From positions 686-64,685 of the forward strand of contig CAZAOV010000003.1 in the NCBI GenBank assembly GCA_964486995.1: a stretch of DNA of 64,000 nucleotides, in the 5' to 3' direction. Position 1 is the first letter of the stretch. Every line of letters begins with the position of its first letter. The notes beneath the pieces are model-generated. The model made no database searches and was not told where the DNA came from. It was given only the letters and a program-made list of their open reading frames with translations. Position numbers and translations under genes: made by a program. This DNA comes from an uncultured Gammaproteobacteria bacterium. Its GTDB lineage: Bacteria > Patescibacteriota > Patescibacteriia > SG8-24. Shown piece after piece: positions 3,051 to 35,426 of this stretch.

Positions 3051-3803
3051 ATGGATGAAAATCTAGTCAAAGAATTGAAAGAAATCGGCCTGTCCGAAAA
3101 TGAAGCTAAAGTTTATTTGGCATCATTAGAATTAGGGCCGGCCACCGCCCAGCAGATTGCGGCCAAGGCAGTGGTATCTCGGCCGAATACTTATATAATG
3201 ATAGAGTCGCTGAAAGGGCGCGGTTTGATGAGTTCATCACCCAGAGGAAAAAAACAGCTTTTTTCTGCCTGCAGCCCTAAAAACCTTGAAGACATTATCG
3301 ATGCGCAAGCTAAAAGCCTTGAGCAAAAAAGGATTCGTTTGCCAGCAATTATGAAGTCCGTAGTAGAGGGTATTCCATCCGATCATGAATTAAAAATAAC
3401 CATGGTAGAAGACTTGGGGGGGTTGGTATTTCTTCAGCGAGACTTAGTTGCTGTGGCTAAAAAATGTGGCTGGATTGATAATGTCGCTTCAATTCCCGCT
3501 GCCAGAAAGTTCGTCTCGGAGCAATCGCTTGATCCTCTTTGGAAGGATTTAGGAAAGGCTAATGTCAGAATTCGCTCGTTAACCACAGGCACGAATAAAT
3601 TAGTGTCAGCTAGCCAAGAAAATTGGGAGAATCGAACAATTAAGCATGACCCATTTTCTTTTAAAGGAGAGCTTACAGTTTATGGTGATAGAGTGGCAAT
3701 GCTATCTTTTAGCAATAGAATTTTCGGAGTTTTAATTAGAGATAAAAATATCGCAGAAACAATGCGCACCATGTTTGAAATGGCCTGGCTAAGCACAAAA
3801 TAA
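3051..3803 (+). CDS. TrmB-family transcriptional regulator (N-terminal winged HTH)
   Basis: LKEIGLSENEAKVYLASLELGPATAQQIAAKAVVSRPNTYIMIESLKGRGLMS matches the TrmB HTH. The region is AT-rich (about 40% GC). Confidence 0.65.
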   Translation: MDENLVKELKEIGLSENEAKVYLASLELGPATAQQIAAKAVVSRPNTYIMIESLKGRGLMSSSPRGKKQLFSACSPKNLEDIIDAQAKSLEQKRIRLPAIMKSVVEGIPSDHELKITMVEDLGGLVFLQRDLVAVAKKCGWIDNVASIPAARKFVSEQSLDPLWKDLGKANVRIRSLTTGTNKLVSASQENWENRTIKHDPFSFKGELTVYGDRVAMLSFSNRIFGVLIRDKNIAETMRTMFEMAWLSTK

Positions 3804-3807
3804 TAAT

Positions 3808-4584
3808 ATGACATCCCAATTAGAGAGAGAATTAATCGAATTTGGCCTTAGTGAAAAAGCAGCAAAGGTATATCTTGCCAGCTTGGAATTGGGACCTTCG
3901 GCGGTGCAGGAAATTGCAAAGAAGGCAGATATCAATAGGCCTACATGTTACGTAATGATTGAAGATTTAACGGAAAAAGGTTTGATGAGCTCTTTTGAAA
4001 AAGGCAAGAGAAGATACTTTACAGCTGAGAATCCTGATCATTTCTTAAATATAATTAGAGAGAATAGGCGCGAGATAGAAAAAAAGGAAGAGAGAATTAA
4101 AAACATATTGGGTGACTTAAGGGCACTCAAAGCTTTTTCGGCCTCATCTCCAAACGTTAGCTATTATGAAGGTTTGGAGGGCATCAATGCGCTACGTGAG
4201 GATGTCATTCGTTCAAAAAGTAAAACAATTTATGAGTTAGTGCCGGTGGATGATGTGCGAAAATTTATTCCAGAAGAGCCAGCACCCGATGATTCCAGAA
4301 AAATTATTCGCGAAAAGGTCAGTGTTAAATCGCTCTACTATAGTAAAAAAGGAGCAATTTATCCGGAAAAAGATGGAATTAGCCAAAGACGTTTTGTTCC
4401 TGTAGAATTGTTTCCCATATCTTGTGAAGTGGTGATTTATGGAAATAAGGTCGCATTCCTGTCTTACTCTGGTAAGCCAACAGGTTTTCTAGTTGATAAT
4501 CAATATGTGGCCGATACCATGAAGATGATGTTTCAAGCACTTTGGGAAGCTGTAAAGCTAATGAATAAAAAAACGAAGCGGTAG
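3808..4584 (+). CDS. TrmB-family transcriptional regulator, tandem paralog of the preceding gene
   Basis: LIEFGLSEKAAKVYLASLELGPSAVQEIAKKADINRPTCYVMIEDLTEKGLMS aligns along the full length with the upstream gene. The start codon sits 4 nt after the previous stop. Confidence 0.65.
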   Translation: MTSQLERELIEFGLSEKAAKVYLASLELGPSAVQEIAKKADINRPTCYVMIEDLTEKGLMSSFEKGKRRYFTAENPDHFLNIIRENRREIEKKEERIKNILGDLRALKAFSASSPNVSYYEGLEGINALREDVIRSKSKTIYELVPVDDVRKFIPEEPAPDDSRKIIREKVSVKSLYYSKKGAIYPEKDGISQRRFVPVELFPISCEVVIYGNKVAFLSYSGKPTGFLVDNQYVADTMKMMFQALWEAVKLMNKKTKR

Positions 4585-13208: not shown

Positions 13209-15494
13209 ATGGGAAAAAAACAGCGCAGAAAAAAACGCGCGTTAGTGCAGGCATCGTTCGAGCGCTATCCGTTTTTGTTTAAGCTGATTGGCTGGCTGGC
13301 GGTATTGTCGTTGGCCGTGCCGCTGCTGAAGCGACCGCATGCCTACTTAGCTTCGTACTACACGCAGTTTACGGTGATGCAGATTTTGATTGAAGTGATG
13401 TTTGCGTGCTGGCTGATACTGGCGATTAAAGACCGGCGCTTCCGCCCGGATTGGCGAAGTCCAGCGTTGTGGGGCTTGCTGGCGTTTATCGGCACCATGC
13501 TCTTGGCGCTGCCGTTTGCGGTTGACCCAGCATATTCTTTTTGGTCGCGGCCGACGCGCATGACCGGTGTGATTAACTACCTGCACTATGGAGCGTGGCT
13601 GTTTGTGCTGTTGGCGACCTTCAAAAAACCGGAGCAGTATCGCAAGCTGTTGATTGCAACGTCCATAGTATCCATCGTGATCGGGTTGATAGGTTTCGCG
13701 GATTGGTGGGTCAATCCGGGGAGTACGGTGCAGTCCTATTTGGGTAACCCGTCGTTTTTCGGCGTGTACATGCTGCTTCATGCCCTAATTGGCGTGTATC
13801 TGCTGGCCGGAACCAAGACTGTTAAGTCGCGAATATTACCGGTGGTCACGATTGTCGTTGCGGTGGTATCAGTGTTTCTGTCCGGAAGTCGCGGTGCGGT
13901 TCTGACGCTGTTCGCTTCTGTTGTGATTGGGGCAATTATCTATTTTTTGTATTCAAAGACCTATCGACCAGTCAAAATATCCGTAATAGTTGCGCTTTTG
14001 GTTTTGGCAATTTCCGCCGTTGCCGGATTCGCACTGCTGCGGTCGGACAGCATGCGCGGCTGGGTGGATGAGCATCTGTCCGGTCCCACGCATCGTCTGA
14101 TCACCCGCGATTTCGGCAGTGACCGTTGGGTGCTTTGGAACTACGGTTGGCGAGGCGTGCTGGAGCGACCGTTATTCGGTTGGGGTATGGAACAATACGA
14201 GGTGTCGTTCTATAAGCATTACGATCCGCTCACTGAGGATGTGGAAATAATGAACGAGCAGTATGCGGATCGCGCGCATAATCAATATCTTGACGTGCTG
14301 ATTGCTTCTGGATTCTTCGGTTTGGTCGGTTATCTGGCGTTCTTGTTGTTGTTATTGCATTCAGCCTGGACAGCAGTCAGGAAATCGGAAAACTCTATCG
14401 CGCTGTTAAAAAATTCCGCCCTGTCCGCAGCCGTGCTCGCTTACTGCGGTTACGGACTGATTATGTTTGATACGCCCATGGCAGTGATGGTGTCGTTTTT
14501 GGCCTATGGAGTAATCGCGGCTAATTATCGAAAGGTGTGCGGGCCTGCTGAGCCGGAAGCCGAGCTGATAATATCCAATAATTCTTTAGCGCTGGCCGCA
14601 CCAATTTTGGTCATGATGTTTGTGGTGGTGCTGTTGGTGAATGTCATGCCAGCCGTAAAAATTTGGCAGACAGAGGAGGCCGTGAAACTCACCGACACCA
14701 ATCGCACGGCCGCGCTAGAGCAGTATAAAATCGCAACCACCGGATACAATCCTTATGCGCTTGATTTGCGGTTGCGCCTGCTCACCAAAATAAAAAAATG
14801 GTCAGAGAACGTATCACTGCAATCGTCGCAGTTGCAAAAGTTGGTTGAATATACGGTGCCACTCATGGAAGACGCGGCGACAAAACGATCCTATAACATG
14901 CGTTTCCAGTTGGCGGCGGCCGCGATGTTTAGGATTTTTGGCGACTACAATCCGGCGGCCTACGCCATAGCCGAGGAATATGCGCAGACAGTTATACAGA
15001 CCGCACCCGGCAGGCCTGAGGCATATATCGAGCAGGGTGAAATCGATATTACGCAGAATGATGCTGATTCAGCGATTCTATACCTAATGAAGGCAATAGA
15101 GCGGGTGCCAATCAAAAACAGGCATGTCAGTCGGTATATCTATTTCCGACTCGCGAGCGCATATGCGCTAAAGTGTGACCATCAAGAATCAAAGAAGAAC
15201 TTTGATATTGCGGCTGAATACGGCCATCCGCATCATAAAGACACGCGGTTCTTGCTTGATTTGGATCGCGGCTGTCGGTCGGACCGGGATTTTTCCTGGG
15301 TCGCCGATCATGTCGATCAGTTGCTGGTGGTGTATCCCGACCATCCCCGAGTTCTGCCGGCCGCCGCGCGCATATATATGCTCTCCGAACAGCCAGACAA
15401 AGCCGTGGAGATGGTCGAAAGATTAGATAAGAGAGACCCAGGTTCTGCCAGACAGCTAGCCGAAGAACTCGAATTAATTAACGAGGAGGAATAA
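13209..15494 (+). CDS. O-antigen ligase/polymerase (Wzy_C) domain membrane protein with C-terminal TPR-like repeats (paralog 1 of 4)
   Basis: Multi-TM N-terminal half with SGSRGAVLTLFASV and HNQYLDVLIASGFFGLVGYLAFL (WaaL/Wzy_C-like). C-terminal helical repeats. Lys-rich N-terminus. Confidence 0.7.
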   Translation: MGKKQRRKKRALVQASFERYPFLFKLIGWLAVLSLAVPLLKRPHAYLASYYTQFTVMQILIEVMFACWLILAIKDRRFRPDWRSPALWGLLAFIGTMLLALPFAVDPAYSFWSRPTRMTGVINYLHYGAWLFVLLATFKKPEQYRKLLIATSIVSIVIGLIGFADWWVNPGSTVQSYLGNPSFFGVYMLLHALIGVYLLAGTKTVKSRILPVVTIVVAVVSVFLSGSRGAVLTLFASVVIGAIIYFLYSKTYRPVKISVIVALLVLAISAVAGFALLRSDSMRGWVDEHLSGPTHRLITRDFGSDRWVLWNYGWRGVLERPLFGWGMEQYEVSFYKHYDPLTEDVEIMNEQYADRAHNQYLDVLIASGFFGLVGYLAFLLLLLHSAWTAVRKSENSIALLKNSALSAAVLAYCGYGLIMFDTPMAVMVSFLAYGVIAANYRKVCGPAEPEAELIISNNSLALAAPILVMMFVVVLLVNVMPAVKIWQTEEAVKLTDTNRTAALEQYKIATTGYNPYALDLRLRLLTKIKKWSENVSLQSSQLQKLVEYTVPLMEDAATKRSYNMRFQLAAAAMFRIFGDYNPAAYAIAEEYAQTVIQTAPGRPEAYIEQGEIDITQNDADSAILYLMKAIERVPIKNRHVSRYIYFRLASAYALKCDHQESKKNFDIAAEYGHPHHKDTRFLLDLDRGCRSDRDFSWVADHVDQLLVVYPDHPRVLPAAARIYMLSEQPDKAVEMVERLDKRDPGSARQLAEELELINEEE

Positions 15495-15495
15495 A

Positions 15496-17742
15496 GTGAC
15501 AGCGATGGGAAAGAAGAAACGCAACAAAAAAAACCTGGCTAATCAAGCTGCGACCAAGAAGAACGACGAGCAACCGTCAATGTTGCCGGCGCTGATATTC
15601 TTTTGCGGATTGCTGGCTTTGGTCGCTCCATTGCTGCCGTCTTCAGCGCCGTCCATACCGGTCACTCTGACACAGGCCTCAGTGTTTCAGGCATTGGTCG
15701 CTGTTATGGTCGCCGCGTGGATTCCGTTGGCGATTACTGATAGGCGCTATCGGCCGCATTGGGGACTGCTTACGTTCGCAGTGCTCGGCTACGGCGTCAT
15801 GATTTTGGTGTCGCTGGCGTTTAGTGCCGACGGAGATCTGTCGTTCTGGTCGCAGCTGTGGCGCATGACCGGTGTTTGGAACATGCTGCATTACGTGGCT
15901 TGGTTTGTTGTGTTGGCGTCGGTAATGAAGAGTCACAAGGATTGGCGGATATTTTTGGCGATAAGTTGCGCGTTTGCCTTATATGCCAGCCTGTACGGAT
16001 TAAAGCAATGGCTCGCCAGTCCGATGTCGGCTAGCGTGCGTTCAACGCTCGGCAATCAGTCATTACTGGCGGCGTACGTGTTACCGCATATTTTTATCGC
16101 TTGGTATTTGAATATCGCTAACCGTGCTTGGTCTAAGTATTTTTATTACACGGTGATGGTCGCATGTTCGGCCACGATAATTGTTTCTGCCAGTCGTGGG
16201 GCGGTGTTGGCCTGGGTGATTAGTGTCGCACTCGCCGTAGCGGCGCTCGTCGCTTTATCTAAGTGGCCGAGAAAGCGGCGGTTGGCGTTGGTCAGTCTGA
16301 TAATTACGTTACCGGTTCTGGCTATCGGTGCGGTACTGTTAATGCGCACGCCGGTTGCCAAAGAAGTGGTTACTTCGAACATAAGGGTACCGCGTTTTTT
16401 CAGTCGTGTGGTTTATCGCGATATCGGCGAGGACCGCAAGCTGCTTTGGTCTTACGCTTGGCGCGGATTCACGGAGCGACCCGTGTACGGATGGGGTAAC
16501 GAGATGTACGGCTATTTGTACGACTATTATTTTGACCATACCGGGGAAGATATCGTGATTTTCAATGAGCGCTGGCAAGACCGAGCGCATAATCAGTATC
16601 TGGATATTCTGGTTTCGTACGGTGTCATAGGAATGCTGTCGGTAATTCTGATTTGGTTCGCGGTCGGCAGGAAGCTGTGGCTGGCGTTTCGGGCGACCGA
16701 TGAGCGTACGGAAAAAAAGAGGTTGGCCATGCTGGCGGTATTTAGTGTTTGCTACCTGACTTATGTGCTGACCATTTTTGACACGCCGGCACAGTTAACC
16801 GTAGTTTTTGCGGTACTGGCCTTAATTGCGACTCTTTCTGTTGATGAGAAACATGATGAGCGGCTGACAAAAACAAACACCAGATTGCGTTTGGCAATTC
16901 TAGCTGTCTGCATTCCAATATCGCTGTATGTGATTTGGCTCAACATGGCGCCGGTGGTTCGGGCGGCAGCGGTGCATGAAGGGCTGATTGCCATTCGTTC
17001 AGATCGGCAGGACATGCGCGCGACTTTTTCCGGGGCGTTCAAGTGGCCCAACGCTTACGTTCACGGCATGCGGTACGCGGCCATATTTGAGGTGCAGAAG
17101 TATATGGAGCTTGCACAGTTGAATTCCGCAGATATGCACGATGGTCTTGAGTATCTAGTCGAGCAGGCGGTCGATTCGGCTGAAGATCGGCCGCTGACGT
17201 CAAGATACCTAATTGGTGCCAGTACAGCTCTGCGACTGCTGGCCATGCACGAGCCAGAGAAACTTGATGACGCCGAGATGTACGCGCAGAAAATTATCGA
17301 TTTGATGCCGAACCGGTTTGACGGTTATGCCGAAATGGCCGAGATCAATATTTTGCGAGGCGAATTCCAGGAGGCGATTGCACAGCTCAAGAAAGCCGAA
17401 GAACGCGTTTATGCCAGGCGCAGAGATTTACAATCCAGAATCTACATGCTGATGGCAACCGCGTACGCCGGATTGGGGCAGATTGATCGGGTGGTCGAAT
17501 GCACCCAAAAAGCCGGCGAGTTGGATCAGAACGCGTTCTTCGATTCTCGGTTGGCGATTATTCTGTCAAAGAATATTCAATTCGGTGACAACATCGTCGG
17601 CTTGGACGGATACCTAAACATATTGCAGAGCCGCTATTCGCAGGTTTCGCCGGTTATGCAGGCTGTGGCAAAGATTATTCAGGCTGGCTCCAGCACGTCA
17701 GTCGATGTTGGAACCACATCCTTAGATGAGTCAGCTAACTAA
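15496..17742 (+). CDS. O-antigen ligase (Wzy_C)-TPR membrane protein (paralog 2 of 4)
   Basis: Aligns along its length with paralog 1 (SASRGAVLAWVISV; HNQYLDILVSYGVIGMLSVILIW). GGAGGA RBS 5 nt before GTG(15496). ATG at 15505 is an alternative start. Confidence 0.7.
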   Translation: MTAMGKKKRNKKNLANQAATKKNDEQPSMLPALIFFCGLLALVAPLLPSSAPSIPVTLTQASVFQALVAVMVAAWIPLAITDRRYRPHWGLLTFAVLGYGVMILVSLAFSADGDLSFWSQLWRMTGVWNMLHYVAWFVVLASVMKSHKDWRIFLAISCAFALYASLYGLKQWLASPMSASVRSTLGNQSLLAAYVLPHIFIAWYLNIANRAWSKYFYYTVMVACSATIIVSASRGAVLAWVISVALAVAALVALSKWPRKRRLALVSLIITLPVLAIGAVLLMRTPVAKEVVTSNIRVPRFFSRVVYRDIGEDRKLLWSYAWRGFTERPVYGWGNEMYGYLYDYYFDHTGEDIVIFNERWQDRAHNQYLDILVSYGVIGMLSVILIWFAVGRKLWLAFRATDERTEKKRLAMLAVFSVCYLTYVLTIFDTPAQLTVVFAVLALIATLSVDEKHDERLTKTNTRLRLAILAVCIPISLYVIWLNMAPVVRAAAVHEGLIAIRSDRQDMRATFSGAFKWPNAYVHGMRYAAIFEVQKYMELAQLNSADMHDGLEYLVEQAVDSAEDRPLTSRYLIGASTALRLLAMHEPEKLDDAEMYAQKIIDLMPNRFDGYAEMAEINILRGEFQEAIAQLKKAEERVYARRRDLQSRIYMLMATAYAGLGQIDRVVECTQKAGELDQNAFFDSRLAIILSKNIQFGDNIVGLDGYLNILQSRYSQVSPVMQAVAKIIQAGSSTSVDVGTTSLDESAN

Positions 17743-17748
17743 ATAAAT

Positions 17749-20043
17749 ATGAGCAAGAAGAAACGACGACAAAAAGCAGTGTCGAATAAGCATTGGCTGT
17801 CGTGGCTGATTTACATTTGCGCATTGCTCGCTGTAGCCACGCCCCTGCTGTCGCCGTACTGGCCGCTGATTAATTACACCCAGATTAAAACTTTCACTTT
17901 TCAGGCACTGGTCGAGATAATGTTCGTGGCTTGGGTCGTCTTGGCGGTGGCGGACAAGCGCTATCGTCCACGCCGGAACGCCTTGTCAATAACGTTGCTG
18001 CTGTTTATGGGCGCGGTGCTCGCTTCCTTACCTTTCAGCATTGATTCATCGCTGTCGTTTTGGCATATCAGCAATCGCATGACCGGAGTGGTGACTTTGC
18101 TGCATATGGCAGCTTGGTTTTTTGTTCTAGCAAATTCGCTGCATCACCGTGACGAATGGATTAAGCTGTTTAAGATAAGCGGGCTGATTTGTTACGCCAT
18201 CTTAGCGGTTGATTTGGTGGTCTGGTCGGGCAATACGCAAACTTCGGCCATGAAAAAAATATTTGGCAACTCGTTCTACATGATTTCCTATGTCATGCCG
18301 CACGTGTTTCTTGGTCTATATCTGTGGCTACGAGAAAAAACCCATAAAAAATATTTTTGGCTTTCCTTGTCTGTGGTGGCGTCGGTGGCGATTGTATTGA
18401 CGGGAAGCCGTTCTGGAATTCTGGCGTTGATAATTTCGGTGTTCATAGCCGTGCTATGCCTGACGTTGATTTCAGACAAAAGCCGGGGGAAGCGAGCGCT
18501 GATAGTGGTCTTGAGTACGGTCCTTACGCTAGCCGCGGTCGGAGGTTTTTTTGGCTTGCGCACAGAAGCCGGTCGAAATTGGGTTGCTGAAGCCAGTTAT
18601 GTCCCAGGCGCATTTCATCGCATGGCTCACCGAGATTTTGGCGGCGATCGGCTGGCGTTATGGAATATGGCGCTCAAAGGTATAGCCGAACGACCGATTT
18701 TCGGTTGGGGCAATCTGCAGTTCCTGCACGTATCTTCGAAGTATCTGGATATCGACAGCAGTGCCCTAGAGGTACTGAACGAAAGCTGGCAGGACTCCTC
18801 GCACAATCAGTATTTGGATCATTTGATGCATTACGGTGTAGTTGGTTTTACGGCGTATTTGGCGATGTGGATTGGTGTGCTGGTGTTGTTGATCCGCACG
18901 TATCGTCGTGCGGAATCGCTGAACGACAAGCGCAGCTTGCTGTTGGTCGGGGTACTGTTCGTTAATTATCTTATATATACGGTGTTTATTTTTGATACAC
19001 CACAGATGCTGATGCTGATGTTTATGATGTTTGCTTGGCTGGTGTTTATGCGAACTGGGCAGCTCCAGACCGAAGATCAGGATATTCTGGTCGGTAATCC
19101 CTCGGTAACGCTGTTCATGGTTTTGTTGATACCCATGTTGATGTTCTGCTGGTTTGCTAACGGCCAGCATTACGTCGCACAAAAACATTGGATTGCCGGA
19201 GCCGCTGCGGTAAGCGGCGGCAACTGGACTAAAGCGGCGGATGAATTTGGTCAGGCATATGGAAATACATCCAATCCGTACATATACGAGCTGCGCACTT
19301 TTGCTATGGAGCCGACCAGGAATTCCGTCGATTATTATTTTTCTGGCGGTCAGGAGAACGAAGAGGGGATTGACCTGTATCTGAAGACAATGGCTGATGC
19401 CACGACCGCCAATGTGGATGATCATCCGACTAACCCCAAAGCACTCTTCTTGGCTGGGCAGACACATCGGTATTTATACAAAGTAGACGATGCCGCCTGG
19501 CAGCAATCATATGATTACGTTCAGCGGTATCTGGAGATGGCGCCTGATAGATTTGACGCACACCTGCAGATGGCCGAGCTGAATGCCTTACGCGGCAATT
19601 ATGAAGAGGCCCACAAATGGTTCGATTCCGCTTACGAGCGACATTTTCGACTTTCAAGGCAATACGGCGGATTCATTCTGTATCGAAAAGCCTGCATCTA
19701 CGCTCGTCAGCGAAATTTTTCCGCGTTGGCCGAGACTATCTCGAAAAGCGCCAAGGTTTTTCCTGGCCATAAAGATGCGCGCTTAATTCTGATAATGGGA
19801 GAGGTGGTGCAAGAAGGTGATAACTTGAGCGGTTTTGAACCGTTCCTTGATCTTGCCATGACTCATTTTCAGCATGATGTAGAAGTGTTGACCGCTGGTG
19901 CGCGGCTGTATCATGTGCTGGGTCATAACGACATGGTTAGTCAGGTTCTCGAAGTTCCGGCCATGGTGGAATGGGGCAATTCCGAGGAAGGACGGGGACA
20001 ATATGATGCCCTAAAGAGAGAATTGGGCTACATTGAGTGGTAA
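17749..20043 (+). CDS. O-antigen ligase (Wzy_C)-TPR membrane protein (paralog 3 of 4)
   Basis: TGSRSGILALIISV; HNQYLDHLMHYGVVGFTAYLAMW; C-terminal RFDAHLQMAELNALRGNYEEAHKWF TPR-like repeat. Confidence 0.7.
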   Translation: MSKKKRRQKAVSNKHWLSWLIYICALLAVATPLLSPYWPLINYTQIKTFTFQALVEIMFVAWVVLAVADKRYRPRRNALSITLLLFMGAVLASLPFSIDSSLSFWHISNRMTGVVTLLHMAAWFFVLANSLHHRDEWIKLFKISGLICYAILAVDLVVWSGNTQTSAMKKIFGNSFYMISYVMPHVFLGLYLWLREKTHKKYFWLSLSVVASVAIVLTGSRSGILALIISVFIAVLCLTLISDKSRGKRALIVVLSTVLTLAAVGGFFGLRTEAGRNWVAEASYVPGAFHRMAHRDFGGDRLALWNMALKGIAERPIFGWGNLQFLHVSSKYLDIDSSALEVLNESWQDSSHNQYLDHLMHYGVVGFTAYLAMWIGVLVLLIRTYRRAESLNDKRSLLLVGVLFVNYLIYTVFIFDTPQMLMLMFMMFAWLVFMRTGQLQTEDQDILVGNPSVTLFMVLLIPMLMFCWFANGQHYVAQKHWIAGAAAVSGGNWTKAADEFGQAYGNTSNPYIYELRTFAMEPTRNSVDYYFSGGQENEEGIDLYLKTMADATTANVDDHPTNPKALFLAGQTHRYLYKVDDAAWQQSYDYVQRYLEMAPDRFDAHLQMAELNALRGNYEEAHKWFDSAYERHFRLSRQYGGFILYRKACIYARQRNFSALAETISKSAKVFPGHKDARLILIMGEVVQEGDNLSGFEPFLDLAMTHFQHDVEVLTAGARLYHVLGHNDMVSQVLEVPAMVEWGNSEEGRGQYDALKRELGYIEW

Positions 20044-20089
20044 GAATAACTTGTTGATGACATGCCGAAGTTATGCCGAAGCGTGTTAA

Positions 20090-22336
20090 GTGAGTACAAC
20101 TATGGTTTACGCAAATAATAAAATCGCCTCTTGGATGCTTTTGGCAGTCGTAGTCAGTATTGCTGCCATAATTGTGGCCGTGCCGTTATTGCCGGCCTGG
20201 ACTAGTTACACAACCTGTATTTTTTCCGAGGCGACTTTTTTTCAAATCGCGGTGGAGGTGATGCTGGCAGCATGGATACCGCTGGCCTTAGCCACACCAA
20301 GGTTTCGACCGCGTCGAAGTTGGCTTACCGGGGCGGTTGTATTTTACGCCGTCGTTATGATGGCATCTTTGTTTTTTGCGGTTGATCCATCTCTGTCAGC
20401 CTGGTCAAAAGTCACTCGCATGACCGGTGTCATCAATATGCTGCATATTGTTGGCTGGTTTTTGGTCTTGTCTTCCTCGCTGCGCGGCATCAGACAGTGG
20501 CGTTTTCTGCTCACTGCCAGCGTCGTTGTCAGCACCCTAATCAGCATAATCGCCATTATCGAAGGTGTGGCCGGATCAGGTCCTGTTGTGGCTACCATGT
20601 GCAACCAATCATTTTTGGCCGCTTATCTTCTGCCTCATGTGGGGATTGCAATGTTTTTGCTGTTCAGGGAGAAGCAATGGTTCTTTCGTGTAGCTCTATT
20701 GACCACCTCGACCATTCTGCATCTGATTGCGATGTATTTTTCTGCCAGTCGGTCGGGCATGCTGGCGTCACTTATTTTGGTGGCATCGTTCTTGGTGGTG
20801 TTGGTAGCTAGAACAAAGTTTAAGGCGCATAACAGGCGCTTTCTTGTCGCCCTGATTATTATTGCGTTTTGTGCGGTCATCGGGGCGGTCATCGGGCTAC
20901 GTTATTTGTCGGCCGTGGGTAAGTTGGACGCAAATCTGCCTCGACCCGTCAGCCGTCTGGTGCTGAAGGATTTTGGTGATGACCGGTTAGTTTTATGGAC
21001 ATATGCTTGGCGCGGTTTTATGGAGCGGCCCATATTCGGCTGGGGTAACGAACAGTTCAGCACGCTTTATAGCCAGCACTACAACCCGGCCGGTTTGGAT
21101 AAATACGTGTTTAATGAACGATGGCAGGATCGAGCGCATAATCAGTATCTAGATTCACTGGTGTCTTATGGAATTTTCGGGTTTTTGGCCTTTGTATTGA
21201 TTTGGGCGCTGGCCATTAAGCGGGTGCGTTCGTTGTATCGTGATGACGTGCTGGATGTTTATCAGTCATCGATGCTGATGTCGGTGTTTGTGGCGTTGAT
21301 GCTGTTTTACGCGTTCAATTTTGATACGCCGGCCGCGCTTATCGTAATTTACATGTTGTTTGCGTTCTGCGTTGGGGTCAGTCCGCCGCGCCGCGACGAT
21401 CGATTGTTCCATTCGGCTATGTTGGGTGCGGCGTTGATTACCATCAGTTTTGCCGTTGTGGGAATTAGGTTCATAAATGTGGTTCCGGCCATGAGCATGA
21501 AGACTTTCAGCGAAGCCGAGTCAACAATTTTGACCGATGGCATGAAATCGTTCGAAAAATATAGCGTGGCGCTGAAGGGTGTCGGCCCATACAGAAATGA
21601 TTTTAGGCTCAACCACCTGTTTGCCATCCAAAAATATGTCGATCACGCCGGAATGCGCGGTATGCCCCTGGAAACTCTAGTCCGTCAGGCAGTGCATGAA
21701 ACCAAAGATATGGTCGGTGATGCGCCGTACGACTATCGATCGCATTTGGCTAATGCGGTAGCTAATCGGCTAATGGCAGAGTTCGGCGAAGACACCATTC
21801 AAACCGCAAAGGTCAGCGCGCAAAAGGCTCTTGAGTTGGCGCCGACGCGATTTGACGCTCACTTTGAGTTGGGTGAGATTAGTTTAGCTGCGCGGAATTA
21901 TAGACAGTCCGAGCATCATTTTATGCGTGCCATTGAGTATTCTTATTGGAATTTGGCCGGTTTTGATGAATTGGTCTATTATCGCTTAGCTCAGCTGTAC
22001 GTTGAGCAAGGTGATTATGCTATGGCTCGGGAGTGGTTGGCACGCAGTCAGGCGGGTGCGGCATATCCGGCCACTCAAGATGCCAGACTGGTCATGGCCA
22101 TGGATAACCTGTTGGAGACGGATCAGGCCGCATCTGCATTTGCGTTCACATCTTATGTTGATGCGACATTGAATAATTTTATCGTTCATCCGGAGTTGCA
22201 CGCCGCTGCGGCAAGGTATTATGCGGCATTGGGCAACAAGAATCGTGCCGCTCAAATCGTAAATGGCATGGTCGCCACTACACCCGCTTTGGCTCGGCAG
22301 TTGGTAGAAGAATTGGACTTGCCGTTTACTGAATAA
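20090..22336 (+). CDS. O-antigen ligase (Wzy_C)-TPR membrane protein (paralog 4 of 4)
   Basis: SASRSGMLASLILV; HNQYLDSLVSYGIFGFLAFVLIW; C-terminal RFDAHFELGEISLAARNYRQSEHHF. Confidence 0.7.
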   Translation: MSTTMVYANNKIASWMLLAVVVSIAAIIVAVPLLPAWTSYTTCIFSEATFFQIAVEVMLAAWIPLALATPRFRPRRSWLTGAVVFYAVVMMASLFFAVDPSLSAWSKVTRMTGVINMLHIVGWFLVLSSSLRGIRQWRFLLTASVVVSTLISIIAIIEGVAGSGPVVATMCNQSFLAAYLLPHVGIAMFLLFREKQWFFRVALLTTSTILHLIAMYFSASRSGMLASLILVASFLVVLVARTKFKAHNRRFLVALIIIAFCAVIGAVIGLRYLSAVGKLDANLPRPVSRLVLKDFGDDRLVLWTYAWRGFMERPIFGWGNEQFSTLYSQHYNPAGLDKYVFNERWQDRAHNQYLDSLVSYGIFGFLAFVLIWALAIKRVRSLYRDDVLDVYQSSMLMSVFVALMLFYAFNFDTPAALIVIYMLFAFCVGVSPPRRDDRLFHSAMLGAALITISFAVVGIRFINVVPAMSMKTFSEAESTILTDGMKSFEKYSVALKGVGPYRNDFRLNHLFAIQKYVDHAGMRGMPLETLVRQAVHETKDMVGDAPYDYRSHLANAVANRLMAEFGEDTIQTAKVSAQKALELAPTRFDAHFELGEISLAARNYRQSEHHFMRAIEYSYWNLAGFDELVYYRLAQLYVEQGDYAMAREWLARSQAGAAYPATQDARLVMAMDNLLETDQAASAFAFTSYVDATLNNFIVHPELHAAAARYYAALGNKNRAAQIVNGMVATTPALARQLVEELDLPFTE

Positions 22337-29363: not shown

Positions 29364-30173
29364 TTACTCGCTCGAATTGCGGTTTTCGCGCTCCTTGCGA
29401 ATGAGCTCTTTAAGCTCATCAGCGTATCCGATTTCGCTGCCGTCCTTTTCGGTGTCGGCGGGGCTTCCTTCGTTGGTGTCTTCGGTTCGCCCGGACTGCT
29501 GCTTCGGCTTTTTCTCGCCAGGACGAGTTGATATTGGCGCAGGCGGAGGGGTAGGGGCGTCCGATTTCTCGGGCGGCTGTTCCGGCGCCTGCTGCGCCTT
29601 GCGCTTTTCGTCCTCTTGCAGCTTGCGCTTCAGGCGGTCGATTTCTCGGCCTTCTTCCGTGCCGTTGCCAGGAACCGGGCTCGCATCATCGTCGTTTAGT
29701 CCGGTCTCTTCCCTGAGCCAGTCGCCGGCCCTACGACCCCATCGATTGACCCATCCTGCAGCCCGCCTGCTAGCTCGCTTTGACGCTTCATAGCTCAGTC
29801 GAGCGGTTTCCGCTGCGGTTCCGGCCAGGTCAGCTTCGTCTGTTTGCTCAGCCGCGGTCTTGTTCGCCGCGGCTCGCTGAGGGTCCAATGCATCGTCCTC
29901 TACGGCTCCGGCTTTATTCTGCCTAGTTTCAGCCTTCTTCTCAGCCTCGCGAGCAGATGCCTTGGTCTTATACTCCATGAACATCTGCATGATTTTGACC
30001 GGATCCACCTTAGCGGCGATTCCACGCATTACACTATCCACGCGCTTCTTAAACTCCTCGTCCTTTTTGTACTTCTCATGAAAATACTTGAAGACGTTGT
30101 CCAAAATTTTGAGAAGCACAGGCATGATTACAATCTGAACTAGCTTCAGAAGGTAATCGATCACGAGCTTCAT
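29364..30173 (-). CDS. Hypothetical protein, highly charged and low-complexity (K/E/A/D-rich), with a hydrophobic N-terminal helix
   Basis: ORF of 269 aa. No recognised domain. Confidence 0.4.
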   Translation of the reverse strand: MKLVIDYLLKLVQIVIMPVLLKILDNVFKYFHEKYKKDEEFKKRVDSVMRGIAAKVDPVKIMQMFMEYKTKASAREAEKKAETRQNKAGAVEDDALDPQRAAANKTAAEQTDEADLAGTAAETARLSYEASKRASRRAAGWVNRWGRRAGDWLREETGLNDDDASPVPGNGTEEGREIDRLKRKLQEDEKRKAQQAPEQPPEKSDAPTPPPAPISTRPGEKKPKQQSGRTEDTNEGSPADTEKDGSEIGYADELKELIRKERENRNSSE

Positions 30174-30284
30174 GACCCCTCCTTATCCGCAGTTAAACGA
30201 ATCCGATTTATAAAGGGCTTGTTACGTTACCTATTTTGCCATACTAAGTCAAGATATGGGAAGGGTAGGCGACATTCTAGACTG

Positions 30285-31322
30285 GTTGCACCACCCTGTG
30301 GCAGTATGACCCCTTAGAACATGACACCGAACGACATGCAACACAGGGAACTTTCGCTTCCCGAGCGGCAGTTCCTGGAGGTCCGGCTGCTCGGCAAGTG
30401 GAGCCTGCGGCGGACCGCTACAGCCATGGGCCGGGATCACTCGGCCCTCTCGAGGGAGGTCAGGAACAACCGCTGCCCGGACGGCAGGTACCGCGCGGCC
30501 GAGGCACAGCGACGGTCCGAGGCCGGGAAGCGCCGCTCCGGCCGGGGGCGCAAGCTCGACCGGGACCGGGCGCTGGCGGACTGGGTGACGGACAGGCTCC
30601 GGGACGGATGGTCGCCGGAGAGGATCGCCGGGAGGCTGAAGGCCAGTCCGCCGGAGGGCCTCGAGGGCCGGACGTTGAGCCACGAGACGGTCTACCGCTG
30701 GCTGTACGACGGGGACGGGCGGTACGGCGGGCTGTACAAATACCTCTGGTCGAGACGGAAACGGCGGTACGCGAGGAGGGGCAGGAAGCCGAAAATGGCC
30801 ATGACTGAGGGAAAAGTGCCGCTCTCGGAGCGTCCCGCGGACGGCCTGCCGGGGCACCTAGAGACCGACTCGATGGTCTGGTACGGGTCGAGGGGGCTGC
30901 TCTCGGCCCAGGTCGACCGGGCCACGCTCGCCTGCCGGCTGCGGTGGTGCCCGGACCGGACGGCGGAGGAGACGGCGCACGCGCTGCGGCGCGCGGTCGA
31001 GACCCTGCCGCACCGGTTCGTGCGGGACGTGGCCTTCGACAACGGCTCCGAGTCCGCCCGTCACGGAATCCTCGGCGAGGAGTACGGCATACCGACCTAC
31101 TTCTGCGAGCCGTACTCGCCCTGGCAGAAGTCGCAGGTCGAGAACCTGAACCGCACGATTCGGCACTGGGTGCCGAGGAAAACGAAAGCCCACGACCTTG
31201 CGGCCGTGGACTGGAAGACGCTCGAGGACTGGCTGAACAACCTCCCTCGAAAGTCACTGGGATACCTTACGCCGAACGAGGCGATTAATCAATACCTGTC
31301 AGGTGGTGCAACTGAAACTTGA
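30285..31322 (+). mobile_element. IS30-family insertion sequence (about 1.03 kb) with imperfect terminal inverted repeats. GC about 70% versus about 50% in the flanks.
   Basis: IRL GTTGCACCACCCTGTGGCAGTA (30285-30306). IRR TACCTGTCAGGTGGTGCAAC (31293-31312), whose reverse complement is GTTGCACCACCTGACAGGTA. Encloses one transposase ORF. Confidence 0.8.
30321..31322 (+). CDS. IS30-family DDE transposase
   Basis: N-terminal HTH (WSLRRTATAMGRDHSALSREV). DDE triad context: HLETDSMVW, AFDNGSE, PYSPWQKSQVENLNRTIR. The stop codon lies just past the IRR. Confidence 0.9.
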   Translation: MTPNDMQHRELSLPERQFLEVRLLGKWSLRRTATAMGRDHSALSREVRNNRCPDGRYRAAEAQRRSEAGKRRSGRGRKLDRDRALADWVTDRLRDGWSPERIAGRLKASPPEGLEGRTLSHETVYRWLYDGDGRYGGLYKYLWSRRKRRYARRGRKPKMAMTEGKVPLSERPADGLPGHLETDSMVWYGSRGLLSAQVDRATLACRLRWCPDRTAEETAHALRRAVETLPHRFVRDVAFDNGSESARHGILGEEYGIPTYFCEPYSPWQKSQVENLNRTIRHWVPRKTKAHDLAAVDWKTLEDWLNNLPRKSLGYLTPNEAINQYLSGGATET

Positions 31323-31440
31323 ACTTCCGTAGATAATATATTATTTCGCAGTAAGATTGTTGACATTTTTTGCTGGTCATGATACAATCGCGTGCTCTAG
31401 AGGCGGCATGGTGTCGCATCGGAAGCAGGGAGGATGTGAT

Positions 31441-32349
31441 ATGAAGCTTAGGTCTTTCGCTATGTCTATCGTGGTGGCAGTCATCGCGTTCAGCAGCTTT
31501 GGCTGCGGTTCGCAGGATATTCCACCGGCCATGCGCGGGCAGATGTACGACGCTACGGGCGCGGCTGCGCTCTGGATGTCCGGTGGTCAGGGTCTGACCG
31601 GTCCCGTTCTGGGTCCTGGGACCTATTACACCGGTCTTTATGACAGCATCCGCATGGTAGACTGTTCAGAGTCCGTAGAGCACGAGGGTCTCTCCAGTCT
31701 CACCCGCGACGGTATCCAGTTTGGCCTGGAGGCAGAGATTACCTATTCCATCGACTGTTCGGATGATGTGGTTGGCAAGGTGCTGACTACGCTGCGGCCG
31801 AACGAGCAGGGGGTGATTTCCAGCAAGTCAGCCTACTTGCGTTACGTGCGGCCGTCCATTCGTGAGGTGGTTCGTGAGGCTATTGCGCCGCATATGGCCA
31901 ACGAGGTCAACTCCGAGCGTGACGCCATCATCAACGAGATTCAGAGCAGCTTCATCAAGTCCATGCAGGACGGCAACCGGCGCTTCGTTAAGGTGTCGAC
32001 GCTGGCGCTGACCAACATGGATTTCCCGGAGAAGCTCGACCAGGCGAACGTGGACCGAGCTCAGCAGGACATTTTGCGCGAAAAAGCCATTGCCGAGCGC
32101 GAGCGGGTTGAGGCCGAGACCGAGACCGCGCGCATGCGCAAGCAGCTGCGCACTCGTGAAGGTGAAGCCGAGGCCGCTCGTATCGATATCATCGGGAAGG
32201 CGCTTCAGCGTTACCCTGAATATCTGCGTTACGACATGCAGCAGCGGATGAGTGGTATTTATCGTGAGGCCGGCCAACAGGGCAACATGGTCATTACGGC
32301 ACCTGATCCCAATATTATGATTCAGCCGCCAACCAAGTCGGGGCAGTAG
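31441..32349 (+). CDS. SPFH/band-7 (stomatin/prohibitin-like) domain protein with signal peptide/TM and a C-terminal coiled coil
   Basis: LTRDGIQFGLEAEITYSI SPFH core. Coiled coil AQQDILREKAIAERERVEAETETARMRKQ. The track ORF starts at 31357; MKLRSFAMSIVVA at 31441 is the more likely start. GC about 60%. Confidence 0.65.
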   Translation: MKLRSFAMSIVVAVIAFSSFGCGSQDIPPAMRGQMYDATGAAALWMSGGQGLTGPVLGPGTYYTGLYDSIRMVDCSESVEHEGLSSLTRDGIQFGLEAEITYSIDCSDDVVGKVLTTLRPNEQGVISSKSAYLRYVRPSIREVVREAIAPHMANEVNSERDAIINEIQSSFIKSMQDGNRRFVKVSTLALTNMDFPEKLDQANVDRAQQDILREKAIAERERVEAETETARMRKQLRTREGEAEAARIDIIGKALQRYPEYLRYDMQQRMSGIYREAGQQGNMVITAPDPNIMIQPPTKSGQ

Positions 32350-32350
32350 C

Positions 32351-32605
32351 ATGTTGGTGGTGCTGTATATCGTGGTGGCCGGGGGTGTCATCTATGGTCT
32401 TACCCGGATTGGGCTCAGGCTGCTCGACAACCACAAGGAGCTGAAGATGCTTCGCGAGGAGCGCGCCGCACGTCTCGAAACGGCCAAAACCGCTGAGCAC
32501 GTGGTGCATGAGCTGTTGCTCGATAAGGAGATGGCCTGCGAGGTGCAGGAACGTCTCGAGGAGGGGCTTCGGCGAGAGCATCTTTCGTCGAAAGCGGACG
32601 ACTAA
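32351..32605 (+). CDS. Small membrane protein cotranscribed with the SPFH gene (possible NfeD-like partner)
   Basis: Start codon 1 nt after the SPFH stop. One TM helix, then charged helices. Terminator cggtcgcat-t-atgcggccg+TTTTTT at 32608-32640. Confidence 0.45.
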   Translation: MLVVLYIVVAGGVIYGLTRIGLRLLDNHKELKMLREERAARLETAKTAEHVVHELLLDKEMACEVQERLEEGLRREHLSSKADD

Positions 32606-32688
32606 TCTTATGGCGGTCGCATTATGCGGCCGTTTTTTGTTACCAATAATTTCTGTATTATTAATTCATTATTTCTAAATAACTTTCC

Positions 32689-34163: not shown

Positions 34164-35426
34164 ATGACGACTGGCGCTCCGATTGCTGGGGGCAAGACCA
34201 AGATTATTTACGCCGATCCGCTTAATCCGCACCTAGTGACGATTCAATCCAAGGATGATCTTACCGCTGGTGACGGTGCCAAGCACGATGTGATGGCCGG
34301 CAAGGCCGTGATGGCCAATCAGACCACGTGCAATAACTTTCGGTTCTTGAGCAAATGCGGCGTAGAGTCCGCGTTTCTGCAGCAGCTCGGCGACACCGCG
34401 TTTCAGGCCGTTAAATGCGACATGATTCCGCTCGAGGTGGTAACGCGGCGCGAGGCTCACGGGTCGTTTTTGAAGCGCGAACCGCAGTTGCACAAGGGTC
34501 ATCTGTTTCCACGATTGCGCGTTGAGTTTTATCTGAAGACCGCAGGTGGGATGTGGCGAGCACAGCCGCTTCAGAAAGATGATCCGTATATGCTGCTGAG
34601 CGAAGATGGCTTGGCTCATTTGTATCGACCGGATCAGCCGTTCGTTGGTGCGCAGTCGTTTTTGACCATCAGCGACGCGCCGCTCGACGCCGACCCGGCG
34701 AAGTACGCCGAGCTTGATGGTGTTGCACGCCATGTTTTTCTCGCACTCGAGAAAGCCTGGCAGTTGCAGGGGCGGCGGCTGGTGGACATGAAAATCGAAT
34801 TCGGTATCGGGCCGTCCGGAAAAATTATGCTCGCCGACGTTATCGACAATGACTCGTGGCGGGTGCTCGAGGAGGGTCAGTACATCGACAAGCAGGTGTA
34901 TCGCGACGGCGGTGCGCTAGAGGCGGTGTCCTCGCGCCACAAAAAGGTGATGCAGCTTACCGGACAGTTTCAGTGCCCGCCGCAGCAGATAATTATCTGG
35001 CGCGGTTCCGAATCCGACAACGTGGATTTGTATCCAGAGACTTTTTACTCCATCGTCAACGACTGGTCGTGCCGATTGGAGTTTGTTGCCTGCTCGATGC
35101 ACAAGAATCCAGAACGCGGACTGGAACAACTGCGCAACATGCTGCAGGAACGACCAGACTCAGTGGTGATCGCGCACATTGGACGAAGTAACGGCGCCGG
35201 TCCGACCATCGCCGCGCATACCAATGTGCCGGTAATCACCGTACCTGCATCGTATCGCGAGTTTCCGAACGACGTTTGGTCGTCCCTGCGCACGCCGAGC
35301 GATGTGCCGGTCATGACCGTGCTCGAACCGAAAAACGCCACGTTCGCCGCGATTCGTATTCTCGGTCAGCGTAACCCTGCTCTGTATGCGCCCATACGCC
35401 TGCGGACCGAAGATCATTGGGCCTAG
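34164..35426 (+). CDS. Bifunctional PAICS-like fusion: SAICAR synthetase (PurC) N-terminal domain + class II AIR carboxylase (PurE) C-terminal domain
   Basis: PurC domain: GKTKIIYADP..LTAGDGAK, IPLEVVTRREAHGSFLKR, LVDMKIEFG. PurE domain: IIIWRGSESD, SMHK (class II SAHK-type rather than class I SAHR), GRSNGAGP, DVWSSLRTPS (close to the human PAICS C-terminal domain). Confidence 0.8.
   Translation: MTTGAPIAGGKTKIIYADPLNPHLVTIQSKDDLTAGDGAKHDVMAGKAVMANQTTCNNFRFLSKCGVESAFLQQLGDTAFQAVKCDMIPLEVVTRREAHGSFLKREPQLHKGHLFPRLRVEFYLKTAGGMWRAQPLQKDDPYMLLSEDGLAHLYRPDQPFVGAQSFLTISDAPLDADPAKYAELDGVARHVFLALEKAWQLQGRRLVDMKIEFGIGPSGKIMLADVIDNDSWRVLEEGQYIDKQVYRDGGALEAVSSRHKKVMQLTGQFQCPPQQIIIWRGSESDNVDLYPETFYSIVNDWSCRLEFVACSMHKNPERGLEQLRNMLQERPDSVVIAHIGRSNGAGPTIAAHTNVPVITVPASYREFPNDVWSSLRTPSDVPVMTVLEPKNATFAAIRILGQRNPALYAPIRLRTEDHWA

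Follow-up and report, generated by a model that had tools for sequence, protein, structure and literature searches.

Organization of the locus

The window, the whole 64-kb stretch of DNA analysed here, carries one complete insertion sequence (IS), with a gene for a charged low-complexity protein on its left and a gene pair encoding an SPFH/Band-7 protein and a small partner on its right (Table 1). To judge from its sequence, the host is an Uhrbacteria-like Patescibacterium near Uhrbacteria, the best named matches of its CysRS coming from Patescibacteria (82% and 79%) and Ca. Uhrbacteria (69%).

Table 1. Features of the element and its neighbourhood, in window coordinates.
Feature	Position	Strand	Details
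Left neighbour, 269-aa charged low-complexity protein	29364..30173	-	from the ORF list; transcribed away from the IS
Putative host promoter of the divergent 269-aa gene	30224..30252	-	TTGACT (30252-30247), 17 nt, TAACGT (30229-30224)
Target-site duplication TAG, left copy	30266..30268	.	directly abuts the element end
Complete IS30-family insertion sequence	30269..31329	+	1,061 bp, 67% GC, one copy in the window
Left inverted repeat, imperfect, ~44-45 nt	30269..30312	+	perfect core 30285-30295; pairwise alignment of both ends
IS30-family DDE transposase, 333 aa	30321..31322	+	NCBIfam NF033563; Pfam HTH_38, rve, rve_3
Right inverted repeat, imperfect, ~44-45 nt	31286..31329	+	perfect core 31302-31312
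Target-site duplication TAG, right copy	31330..31332	.	directly abuts the element end
Predicted promoter of the SPFH gene	31360..31388	+	TTGACA-17-TACAAT, TG before the -10; 11/12 matches; outside the IS
SPFH/Band-7 protein, 302 aa, lipoprotein-like N-terminus	31441..32349	+	Pfam Band_7, E = 8.5e-15
84-aa SPFH partner	32351..32605	+	65% identity with its counterpart downstream of SPFH in L040
Intrinsic terminator of the SPFH pair	32612..32640	+	hairpin 32612-32634: stem of 10 pairs, 6 of them G-C, ahead of a T run

We placed the boundaries of the element at the positions where similarity among 14–16 distinct family members ceases, which gives a left end beginning with GCGACATTCTAGACT and a right end terminating in CTTGAACTTCCG. 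Logan unitigs agree with these ends: one of them (L037) is the element exactly (1,061 bp) and two others (L036 and L039) begin at GCGAC. The first-pass annotation had started the element at 30285, where a perfect 11-bp inverted repeat (GTTGCACCACC / GGTGGTGCAAC) is indeed present; this repeat turned out to be only the perfect core of longer, imperfect repeats, and the ends lie further out on both sides. The left-end family consensus is GCGAnnTTCTAnACT, in which GCGA, TTCTA and ACT are invariant in 14 distinct left ends, and the left repeat holds a −10-like TAGACT (30278–30283) 9 nt from the tip. The right repeat contains a sub-terminal CTTGAAC (31318–31324), and with it a −35-like TTGAAC 5 nt from the tip, as well as the transposase stop codon TGA (31320–31322). 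Most of 16 distinct right ends retain CTTGAAC or CTTGAAT at this distance of 5 nt from the tip, with L011 carrying TTTGACT instead, and both hexamers, which may form a junction promoter, are conserved in the ends of the clade.

Besides the TAG duplication in the window, perfect 3-bp duplications border the element at five other clade sites (L002, CTC; L005, CAT; L020, CCA; L029, AGG; L033, GTT). A clean duplication is absent at about half of the clade sites having both flanks, probably because of chimeric assembly of multi-copy repeats. A search for other copies, proposed in the first-pass annotation, was run within the 64-kb window and recovered no second copy, fragment or end of the element. 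Neither Rfam families nor tRNAs were found near the element, and its left end had no match in the viral contigs searched.

One long open reading frame, at element positions 53–1054, spans nearly the whole element and encodes the transposase; an alternative start at Met6 (30336) would give 328 aa, as in several relatives. The protein matches NF033563 (transpos_IS30) with 188.2 bits (cut-off 80), its residues 41–311 covering model positions 1–267 of 267, whereas the second-best model, IS481, reaches 55.8 bits against a cut-off of 224. Pfam HTH_38 matches residues 8–50 with 28.7 bits (cut-off 27), and the matches to rve and rve_3 fall under their cut-offs. All 23 aligned sequences share D183 and D240, and conservation of E274 reaches at least 90%; between D240 and E274 lie 33 residues, in keeping with the DD(33)E spacing of the IS30 family. 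The reading of this frame as an intact DDE transposase gene thus holds at full length, and the model match, the HTH and DDE domains, the layout of ORF and repeats and the short duplication show that the element belongs to the IS30 family. Two long antisense frames (202 aa, 30249–30857; 265 aa, 30460–31257) exist as annotated. We reject them as real genes, since every member has an intact sense frame but the length of the antisense frame follows GC content: it stays open over 268–354 aa only where member GC is 63% or more, and the five members with at most 65% GC (L007, L008, L009, L020 and L038) have it cut to 135–204 aa.

The SPFH gene and its partner have GC contents of 0.581 and 0.588, bearing out the earlier description of a pair at about 60% GC that ends in its own terminator. 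In GC3, SPFH (0.71) is level with DnaK (0.709) and exceeds the window mean by only 1.5 sd. Its 302-aa product is identical to an SPFH protein on record (P0121), and SRR7048221 contains a contig identical to downstream sequence. An SPFH–NfeD pairing is not what we find, as the 84-aa partner has no match in Pfam or NCBIfam; at another, homologous SPFH locus of 70% GC (L031, ERZ1757541 contig_8589), the gene after SPFH is not homologous to this partner. A syntenic relative, L040, shows the same gene order, with DUF362 (79% identity), a homologue of a 147-aa protein, a divergent gene, SPFH (72%) and the partner (65%). Its divergent gene is a weak homologue (25%) of the 269-aa left neighbour, its intergenic region is 416 nt long and free of an IS, and an equivalent promoter (TTGACA-17-TAAGTT) lies ahead of SPFH. 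As SPFH and partner have the highest GC3 in L040 and an equally close SPFH homologue (72%) is found in a ∼70% GC genome not resembling a CPR genome, the data suggest an older, separate transfer from a high-GC bacterium.

Insertion next to promoters

Of 19 unrelated sites at which clade members are inserted, 16 have a divergent promoter of the form TTGACA-N17-TGnTAnnnT lying 15–17 nt from the left end of the element (binomial P ∼ 2e-27). A match required at least 5 of 6 positions of TTGACA at a distance of 15–17 nt from the tip, with TGn and TAnnnT another 16–17 nt on. The orientation is the same at all 16 promoter-adjacent sites, the motif is missing at three of the 19, and none of 15 right flanks has it at that distance. 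In the window, the −35 hexamer of the predicted promoter of the 269-aa gene starts 16 nt from the left tip; its predicted −10, TAACGT, is weak, with matches at 3 of 6 positions. Descent of the 19 sites from one inherited site was rejected, as blastn and tblastx detected no homology among their flanks. We also rejected the promoter-like motif as a component of the element: the duplications and unitig ends lie inside the motif, and the intervening 15 nt beside the left tip show no base preference (information content ∼0), which places the motif outside the element. A palindromic target like the IS30 hot spots was rejected as well, because the right flanks have no mirrored motif. Overall, these data suggest orientation-specific insertion next to promoters.

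Such a pattern might reflect survivorship instead of target choice, with random insertions persisting only between a terminator and a promoter in dense CPR genomes. Intergenic regions in CPR are short, the left neighbours are all transcribed away from the IS, the terminator of the adjacent gene is often in the right flank, and the three sites lacking the motif would fit as well. However, selection alone predicts neither a spacing of 15–17 nt at 16 of 19 sites nor a single orientation at all 16 nor right flanks devoid of the motif at that distance; in the window itself the divergent −35 boxes were 43 bp apart, yet the IS sits 16 nt from one of them. We therefore consider survivorship unlikely. 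That a CPR-restricted IS30 clade picks its targets by reading promoters is, in our judgement, an even bet.

If promoters are read in this way, the transposase, alone or complexed with promoter-bound RNA polymerase or sigma factor, would position the left end so that it lands 15–17 bp upstream of a sigma-70-type −35 hexamer, at about −50 from the transcription start, and the element would always point away from the promoter. Such sites spare both neighbouring genes and their core promoters. In the window, the element entered the 43-bp gap separating two predicted divergent promoters of the host, making the 3-bp TAG duplication. By analogy with IS30 and ISApl1, it would move by copy-out-paste-in, the transposase joining both ends with a spacer of ∼3 bp to give a junction of the form CTTGAACTTCnn-N(2-3)-GCGACATTCTAGACT. 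The spacer is expected to be 3 bp here because that of ISApl1 is much like its direct repeat, and a 3-bp spacer puts TTGAAC and TAGACT 17 nt apart; the joined ends would then create a junction promoter for the transposase. No IRR–IRL circle junction was present among the fetched clade loci.

IS30 of Escherichia coli, at ∼1.2 kb compared with 1,061 bp here, likewise has a single ORF with HTH and DDE domains that nearly fills the element and ends in the right repeat, and both have terminal inverted repeats and a short duplication; the ends here, once joined, might form a promoter as those of IS30 do. However, the closest IS30 transposases of cultured bacteria are only ∼35% identical to that of the element. 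IS1630 of Mycoplasma fermentans targets terminator-like inverted repeats; IS1630 and IS1655 illustrate that target specificity varies among IS30-family members, and we know of no description of either as inserting at a fixed distance from a −35 box. IS1655, from Neisseria meningitidis, is a family member with its own target rule and is cited in PMC9333248 (reference 34). In IS30, the IRL–IRR junction forms the promoter Pjunc, the staggered cuts are 2 bp apart, and target specificity is pronounced (PMC9333248), directed at near-palindromic hot spots or the element's own repeats; in contrast, the duplication here is 3 bp, and the target of the clade is asymmetric, a one-sided promoter at fixed distance and orientation. 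ISApl1, which mobilises mcr-1 and is of similar size to our element, forms a ∼1-kb circle with 27-bp repeats and a junction spacer nearly identical to its direct repeat, both 2 bp long and matching, and inserts mostly in AT-rich regions (PMC10916398), whereas our element makes a 3-bp duplication and its clade shows no base preference in the 15 nt at the left tip. Fixed distance and orientation beside a functional protein-binding DNA site are described for another group of elements in PMC10132070; unlike the element here, these belong to an unrelated IS family, are ∼1.5 kb long and target a recombination site and not a promoter. A full-text literature search, limited in scope so that absence is no proof, found neither promoter-adjacent targeting by IS30-family elements nor IS30 elements in Patescibacteria.

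Composition and origin of the element

The first-pass annotation had estimated ∼70% GC for the element in surroundings of ∼50% and had proposed sliding-window GC and codon-usage analysis, which confirmed the step. Windows of 300 nt over 30350–31250 have a GC content of 0.68–0.73, compared with 0.511 for the window overall, and the whole element has 0.670–0.677. GC3 of the transposase ORF is 0.868, the highest of all 48 ORFs, and the mean of the other 47 is 0.592 (sd 0.079); z is 3.5 for GC as well as GC3, and 4.7 for element GC relative to other 1-kb windows. The step recurs in other hosts: the L001 element has 73–76% GC within flanks of ∼50%, and element GC exceeds flank GC in 16 of 17 clade elements, with a mean excess of 11 points and no positive correlation between the two (r = −0.15). 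This indicates that high GC characterises the clade and is no marker of a donor phylum. As relatives are richer in GC than their hosts wherever sampled, the composition step rather marks a mobile, horizontally spreading element.

The 47 closest relatives of the transposase (56–85% identity) are all metagenomic, and the named carriers of this clade are Parcubacteria CG1_02_58_44, Ca. Uhrbacteria PIY63138.1 and Patescibacteria WB02no13_65_8; Ca. Uhrbacteria supplies one member of the transposase cluster. A scan of 185,579 species genomes yielded three confirmed clade loci only, all in Patescibacteria. The restriction to CPR accordingly reflects four named genomes and a pattern-based scan able to miss divergent copies, and the majority of clade members are short metagenome contigs carrying no taxonomic label. 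Among 72,556 plasmids, the best transposase matches reach at most ∼35% identity, with Rhodobacterales, Streptomyces and Bifidobacterium scoring alike. No near-identical donor copy was found in these searches, the closest relative having 85% identity across 85% of the length and 82% at full length.

The element is intact in its ORF, DDE residues, both ends and duplication and is absent from the L040 locus, indicating a real and fairly recent gain. The foreign composition and recent acquisition reported in the first-pass annotation thus stand, whereas its proposal of an Actinobacteria-like donor fares differently. According to that proposal, the IS, and perhaps SPFH too, came recently from a high-GC donor of this kind, possibly the physical host of an episymbiont. 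A GC content of 67% and a GC3 of 0.87 are typical of Actinobacteria, IS30 transposases of Streptomyces and Bifidobacterium are among the best plasmid matches, and the 72% identical SPFH homologue resides in a genome of ∼70% GC. However, comparison of the transposase with actinobacterial plasmid copies gave 33–35% identity at best, equal to alphaproteobacterial copies and no better than Rhodobacterales, compared with 56–85% for relatives from Patescibacteria and metagenomes; the species-genome scan placed the clade in Patescibacteria only, the GC step recurs in other CPR hosts, and the host appears Uhrbacteria-like and not one of the Saccharibacteria, the only group for which, to our knowledge, association with an actinobacterial host is documented. 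An actinobacterial source is therefore very unlikely. Another Patescibacterium is the likeliest immediate source of the element, whose clade circulates in CPR among Uhrbacteria- and Parcubacteria-like genomes.

Still less probable is a joint mobile unit of IS and SPFH pair, whether an IS with cargo, as the first-pass annotation had it, or the remnant of a composite transposon. The two are adjacent and both above the mean GC of the window, and in another population (L022) a clade IS also adjoins a Band_7 gene. Yet SPFH, starting 112 nt past the right tip, is clear of both right repeat and duplication, a predicted promoter of its own precedes it, no second IS copy or repeat lies within the window, and SPFH and partner occupy the same L040 locus in the absence of an IS. 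The L022 gene was rejected as an orthologue of the window's SPFH: its Band_7 protein shares no more than the domain with that SPFH (BLASTP E = 0.41), and the gene and the IS run convergently. The SPFH pair are thus resident neighbours with their own promoter and terminator, not cargo. A chimeric assembly or a contaminating fragment is an equally improbable origin of the high-GC segment. The switch in composition is abrupt, metagenome assemblies are often broken or mis-joined at IS elements, and related samples show the same IS with varying combinations of flanks. However, a chimeric join would not produce what is seen here: a perfect TAG duplication bordering ends that exactly match the family consensus, a left flank with the usual promoter geometry of the clade, and two flanks that together rebuild an intergenic region syntenic with L040. 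The explanation that we favour, with a probability of roughly 80%, is that of an intact IS30 element of a Patescibacteria clade, inserted next to a promoter and beside a resident SPFH pair; that element GC tops every sampled host flank counts against it.

Implications for mobile elements in CPR bacteria

The phylum of a donor cannot be read off from an abrupt change in GC around a mobile element. Mobile elements of CPR bacteria are little described, and here a distinct IS30 clade emerges whose members have defined ends, duplicate 3 bp and in some samples, such as SRR11567487/8 and ERZ272933xx, are multi-copy. This is direct evidence of DNA movement among reduced CPR genomes. The fixed-distance, one-orientation association of the clade with sigma-70-type promoters is a new lead and, if mechanistic, would mean a new rule of target choice for a DDE transposase. 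If true, it would explain how an IS spreads and persists in very small, gene-dense genomes with little spare DNA, a safe-haven strategy comparable to the promoter-proximal integration by some eukaryotic retrotransposons, and insertions of the clade would map real promoters in unculturable lineages.

Limits, family and expression of the element

Relatives of the IS30-family element at three genome loci and 15 metagenome loci, plus others on further contigs, were aligned at their ends; this put its start at GCGACATTCTAGACT and its end at CTTGAACTTCCG, a length of 1,061 bp. The 11-bp perfect inverted repeat of the first-pass annotation lies where that annotation placed it, but is only the core of imperfect repeats of ∼44 nt, and the element, whose start is conserved beyond it, ends farther out. 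Three independent observations fix these ends. Both tips are flanked by the same 3 bp, TAG, and perfect 3-bp duplications occur at five other sites (CTC, CAT, CCA, AGG and GTT). In Logan, several unitigs comprise exactly the whole element or begin at its first base (L037 is exactly the 1,061 bp; L036 and L039 are further unitigs supporting the ends), as expected of a de Bruijn graph for a multi-copy repeat. Finally, family conservation ceases at bases 30269 and 31329. Within the window the element is present in one copy, with no second copy or fragment.

The transposase, previously called intact and of the IS30 DDE type, indeed covers the full NCBIfam model at 188 bits (cut-off 80). D183, D240 and E274 are conserved, with a D–E spacing of 33 residues as in the IS30 family, and the stop codon lies inside the right repeat. 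The element matches the model, combines HTH with DDE, has one ORF that terminates within the right repeat, and carries terminal repeats and a short duplication; every testable defining feature of the IS30 family is thus present, and it is a member. It differs from characterised members in belonging to a deep clade so far seen only in CPR bacteria (Patescibacteria) and consistently GC-richer than its hosts, in making a 3-bp duplication, and in an insertion pattern that is asymmetric, promoter-adjacent and orientation-specific. A terminator-like antisense hairpin with a T-rich tail within the 3′ end of the transposase gene could halt transcription coming into the IS from the right flank; terminator-like sites were not more numerous in the scan than in shuffles, and the hairpin may be chance.

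During transposition of IS30 and ISApl1, the ends are joined into a circle or dimer whose junction is the reactive substrate (PMC9333248, PMC10916398). The IS30 junction forms a strong promoter, Pjunc (PMC9333248), and the 2-bp junction spacer of ISApl1 is nearly identical to its 2-bp direct repeat (PMC10916398). The clade conserves two hexamers, −35-like TTGAAC at a distance of 5 nt from the right tip and −10-like TA(G/C/T)ACT at 9 nt from the left; with ends joined by a 3-bp spacer, they would stand 17 nt apart. No IRR–IRL junction sequence was present in the related loci retrieved. As inspection of the sequence revealed no convincing transposase promoter in the integrated copy, and the half-promoters are conserved, transposase control is likely a junction-dependent burst of expression.

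Features of the window, with coordinates
Feature	Position	Strand	Details
ADP-ribosylglycohydrolase gene	661-1746	-	0.618 GC, GC3 0.749
Low-GC island	3051-4584		0.39-0.42 GC, GC3 0.35-0.39
Four successive ORFs	13209-22336		∼750 aa each
Scanned ORFs of these four	13209-15494; 17749-20043		Wzy_C/O-antigen-ligase domains; one also TPR
Left-flank −35 hexamer	30252-30247	-	TTGACT, then TAACGT 17 nt on; upstream of divergent 269-aa gene
IS30-family element	30269-31329		0.67 GC
Transposase ORF	30321-31322	+	GC3 0.868
Hairpin, terminator-like	31187-31212	-	in transposase gene 3′ end
SPFH promoter	31360-31388		TTGACA-17-TACAAT, near-consensus
SPFH (Band_7) gene	31441-32349	+	0.581 GC
Partner ORF	32351-32605	+	84 aa, 0.588 GC
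Terminator of SPFH pair	32612-32634
PurC-PurE fusion ORF	34164-35426		SAICAR synthetase and AIR carboxylase domains

Composition and origin

A GC step at the element, proposed in the first-pass annotation, was borne out by 300-nt sliding windows: GC is 0.43-0.46 at 29900-30349, 0.68-0.73 over 30350-31250 and 0.49-0.52 at 31100-31549, against 0.511 for the window overall. The element lies 4.7 sd over the remaining 1-kb windows, and its transposase ORF has the highest GC3 of 48 ORFs (mean of the rest 0.592, sd 0.079). The copy in Parcubacteria CG1_02_58_44 has 73-76% GC between flanks of ∼50%, and 16 of 17 elements with usable flanks exceed them, on average by 11 points, without tracking flank GC (r = −0.15). 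As the step recurs in other hosts and element GC does not follow that of the flanks, high GC is a property of the clade. Its persistence could reflect high-GC hosts, so far unsampled, that act as a reservoir, or some pressure on the element itself that holds its GC up. Both antisense ORFs (202 and 265 aa) are present and, as originally noted, a by-product of high GC. Clade members with at least 63% GC are the only ones in which this frame stays open for 268-354 aa; in L007, L008, L009, L020 and L038, the five at or below 65%, it is shortened to 135-204 aa, unlike the sense ORF, which is intact in every member; the antisense ORFs were therefore ruled out as genes.

The window's CysRS has its best named matches in Patescibacteria (82% and 79%) and Candidatus Uhrbacteria (69%). 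All of the nearest transposases (56-85% identity) come from metagenomes or Patescibacteria, Ca. Uhrbacteria contributing one cluster member, and beyond the clade identity is at most 43%. Scanning 185,579 species by pattern, with one genome for each, confirmed just three loci: two in CG1_02_58_44 and one in Patescibacteria WB02no13_65_8. On plasmids of cultured bacteria (72,556 in all), transposases reached no more than ∼35% identity, with Rhodobacterales, Streptomyces and Bifidobacterium scoring equally. The Actinobacteria-like donor suggested earlier is thus not supported: nothing in these searches ties the element to Actinobacteria.

A syntenic Patescibacteria relative (L040) has the same gene order (DUF362, 79% identity; the 147-aa homologue; the divergent gene; SPFH, 72%; partner, 65%) without the IS, and an intergenic region of only 416 nt. 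The intact element, its undecayed duplication and this empty site argue against the GC-rich segment being an assembly chimera, and indicate that the element is foreign to the window genome, where it was probably gained fairly recently. The proposed recent horizontal transfer therefore stands as to the gain, but not as to an actinobacterial source. As first stated, an intact, horizontally gained IS, the finding is mostly ordinary. The second CG1_02_58_44 copy (L002:3949-5040, on a 48.8-kb contig) is degraded, with a truncated product (254-289 aa) and only ∼60% GC where the intact copy has ∼70%, as would fit an older insertion whose composition is drifting towards that of the host. In a CG1_02_58_44-like population (L021:1030-2603, L023:377-997), the element lies 300-900 nt from rve-type and IS1595-type DDE transposase genes, which looks like a local mobile-element cluster in a CPR genome.

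The SPFH pair and other window features

The intermediate GC of the SPFH gene and its partner, and their own terminator, were confirmed. However, SPFH is not cargo of the IS: it lies outside the right repeat and duplication, has its own promoter and occupies the same place in L040. At 0.71, its GC3 is the same as for DnaK (0.709) and 1.5 sd over the window mean, so composition alone is little informative. In L040, SPFH (0.795) and partner (0.783) have the highest GC3 of 11 genes (the rest 0.505-0.743), and an equally close homologue (72%) sits on a ∼70% GC contig (L031:6001-6924) with gene content unlike CPR (bifunctional aspartokinase-homoserine dehydrogenase, radical-SAM/SPASM and FG-GAP/ASPIC proteins). 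SPFH GC3 declines from 0.886 there to 0.795 in L040 (6001-6906) and to the window value; the partner beside the CPR copies has no conserved counterpart beside the high-GC copy. The L040 peak and the high-GC homologue make an older transfer, separate from the IS, from a high-GC bacterium to the ancestor of both Patescibacteria plausible, at roughly even odds.

Elsewhere, the low-GC island contains two tandem TrmB-like HTH regulator genes and lies as far under the window mean composition (GC3 0.59) as the IS lies over it. The ADP-ribosylglycohydrolase gene, the window's second most GC-rich, may be foreign too. Preceded by glycosyltransferase and sugar-transferase genes, the four successive ORFs resemble an array of paralogues that would assemble cell-surface glycans. 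Fusions of PurC and PurE are more familiar in eukaryotes than in bacteria.

Insertion beside promoters

We read 19 insertion sites, whose flanks lack detectable mutual homology, outward from the left tip. At 16 of them a TTGACA-like hexamer (5 or 6 of 6 matches) starts 15-17 nt from the tip, followed 16-17 nt on by TAnnnT, usually preceded by TG: an extended −10 sigma-70 promoter signature directed away from the IS. By chance, a −35 match at the three offsets would occur with a probability of 0.014 per site (binomial P ∼2e-27). The 15 nt separating tip and hexamer carry no information content, and the motif was found at 15-17 nt in none of 15 right flanks, in either orientation. In the window, the element entered where two divergent −35 boxes lay 43 bp apart, 16 nt away from one of them. 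All but two of the called left neighbours are transcribed in the direction leading away from the IS; the exceptions are a dubious 57-aa ORF in L021 and the neighbour in L043, which belongs to a distant clade.

Promoter adjacency might be mere survival of harmless insertions. Survival alone, however, would not yield a distance peak 3 nt wide together with a single orientation, and we favour target choice, with a probability of about 0.8. The transposase may read CTTGACA directly, a motif resembling the sub-terminal CTTGAAC of the element's own right end. Alternatively, RNA polymerase bound at the promoter may serve it as a docking site; insertion lies near −50, where the polymerase footprint has its upstream edge. 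Full-text literature searches found no description of promoter-adjacent insertion by IS30-family elements.

A distant IS30 element (transposase P0087, L041-L050; 37% identity to the window's transposase, 45% GC) is multi-copy, with at least eight distinct left flanks and a GGT duplication at one site (L049). A TGTCAA-16 nt-IS-tip geometry occurs in two of eight left flanks (L046 and L047), and weaker −35-like hexamers lie at that offset in three more. Of the results, the promoter association most deserves pursuit. As this distant clade shows the same geometry at two of eight sites, insertion of this kind may predate the GC-rich clade.
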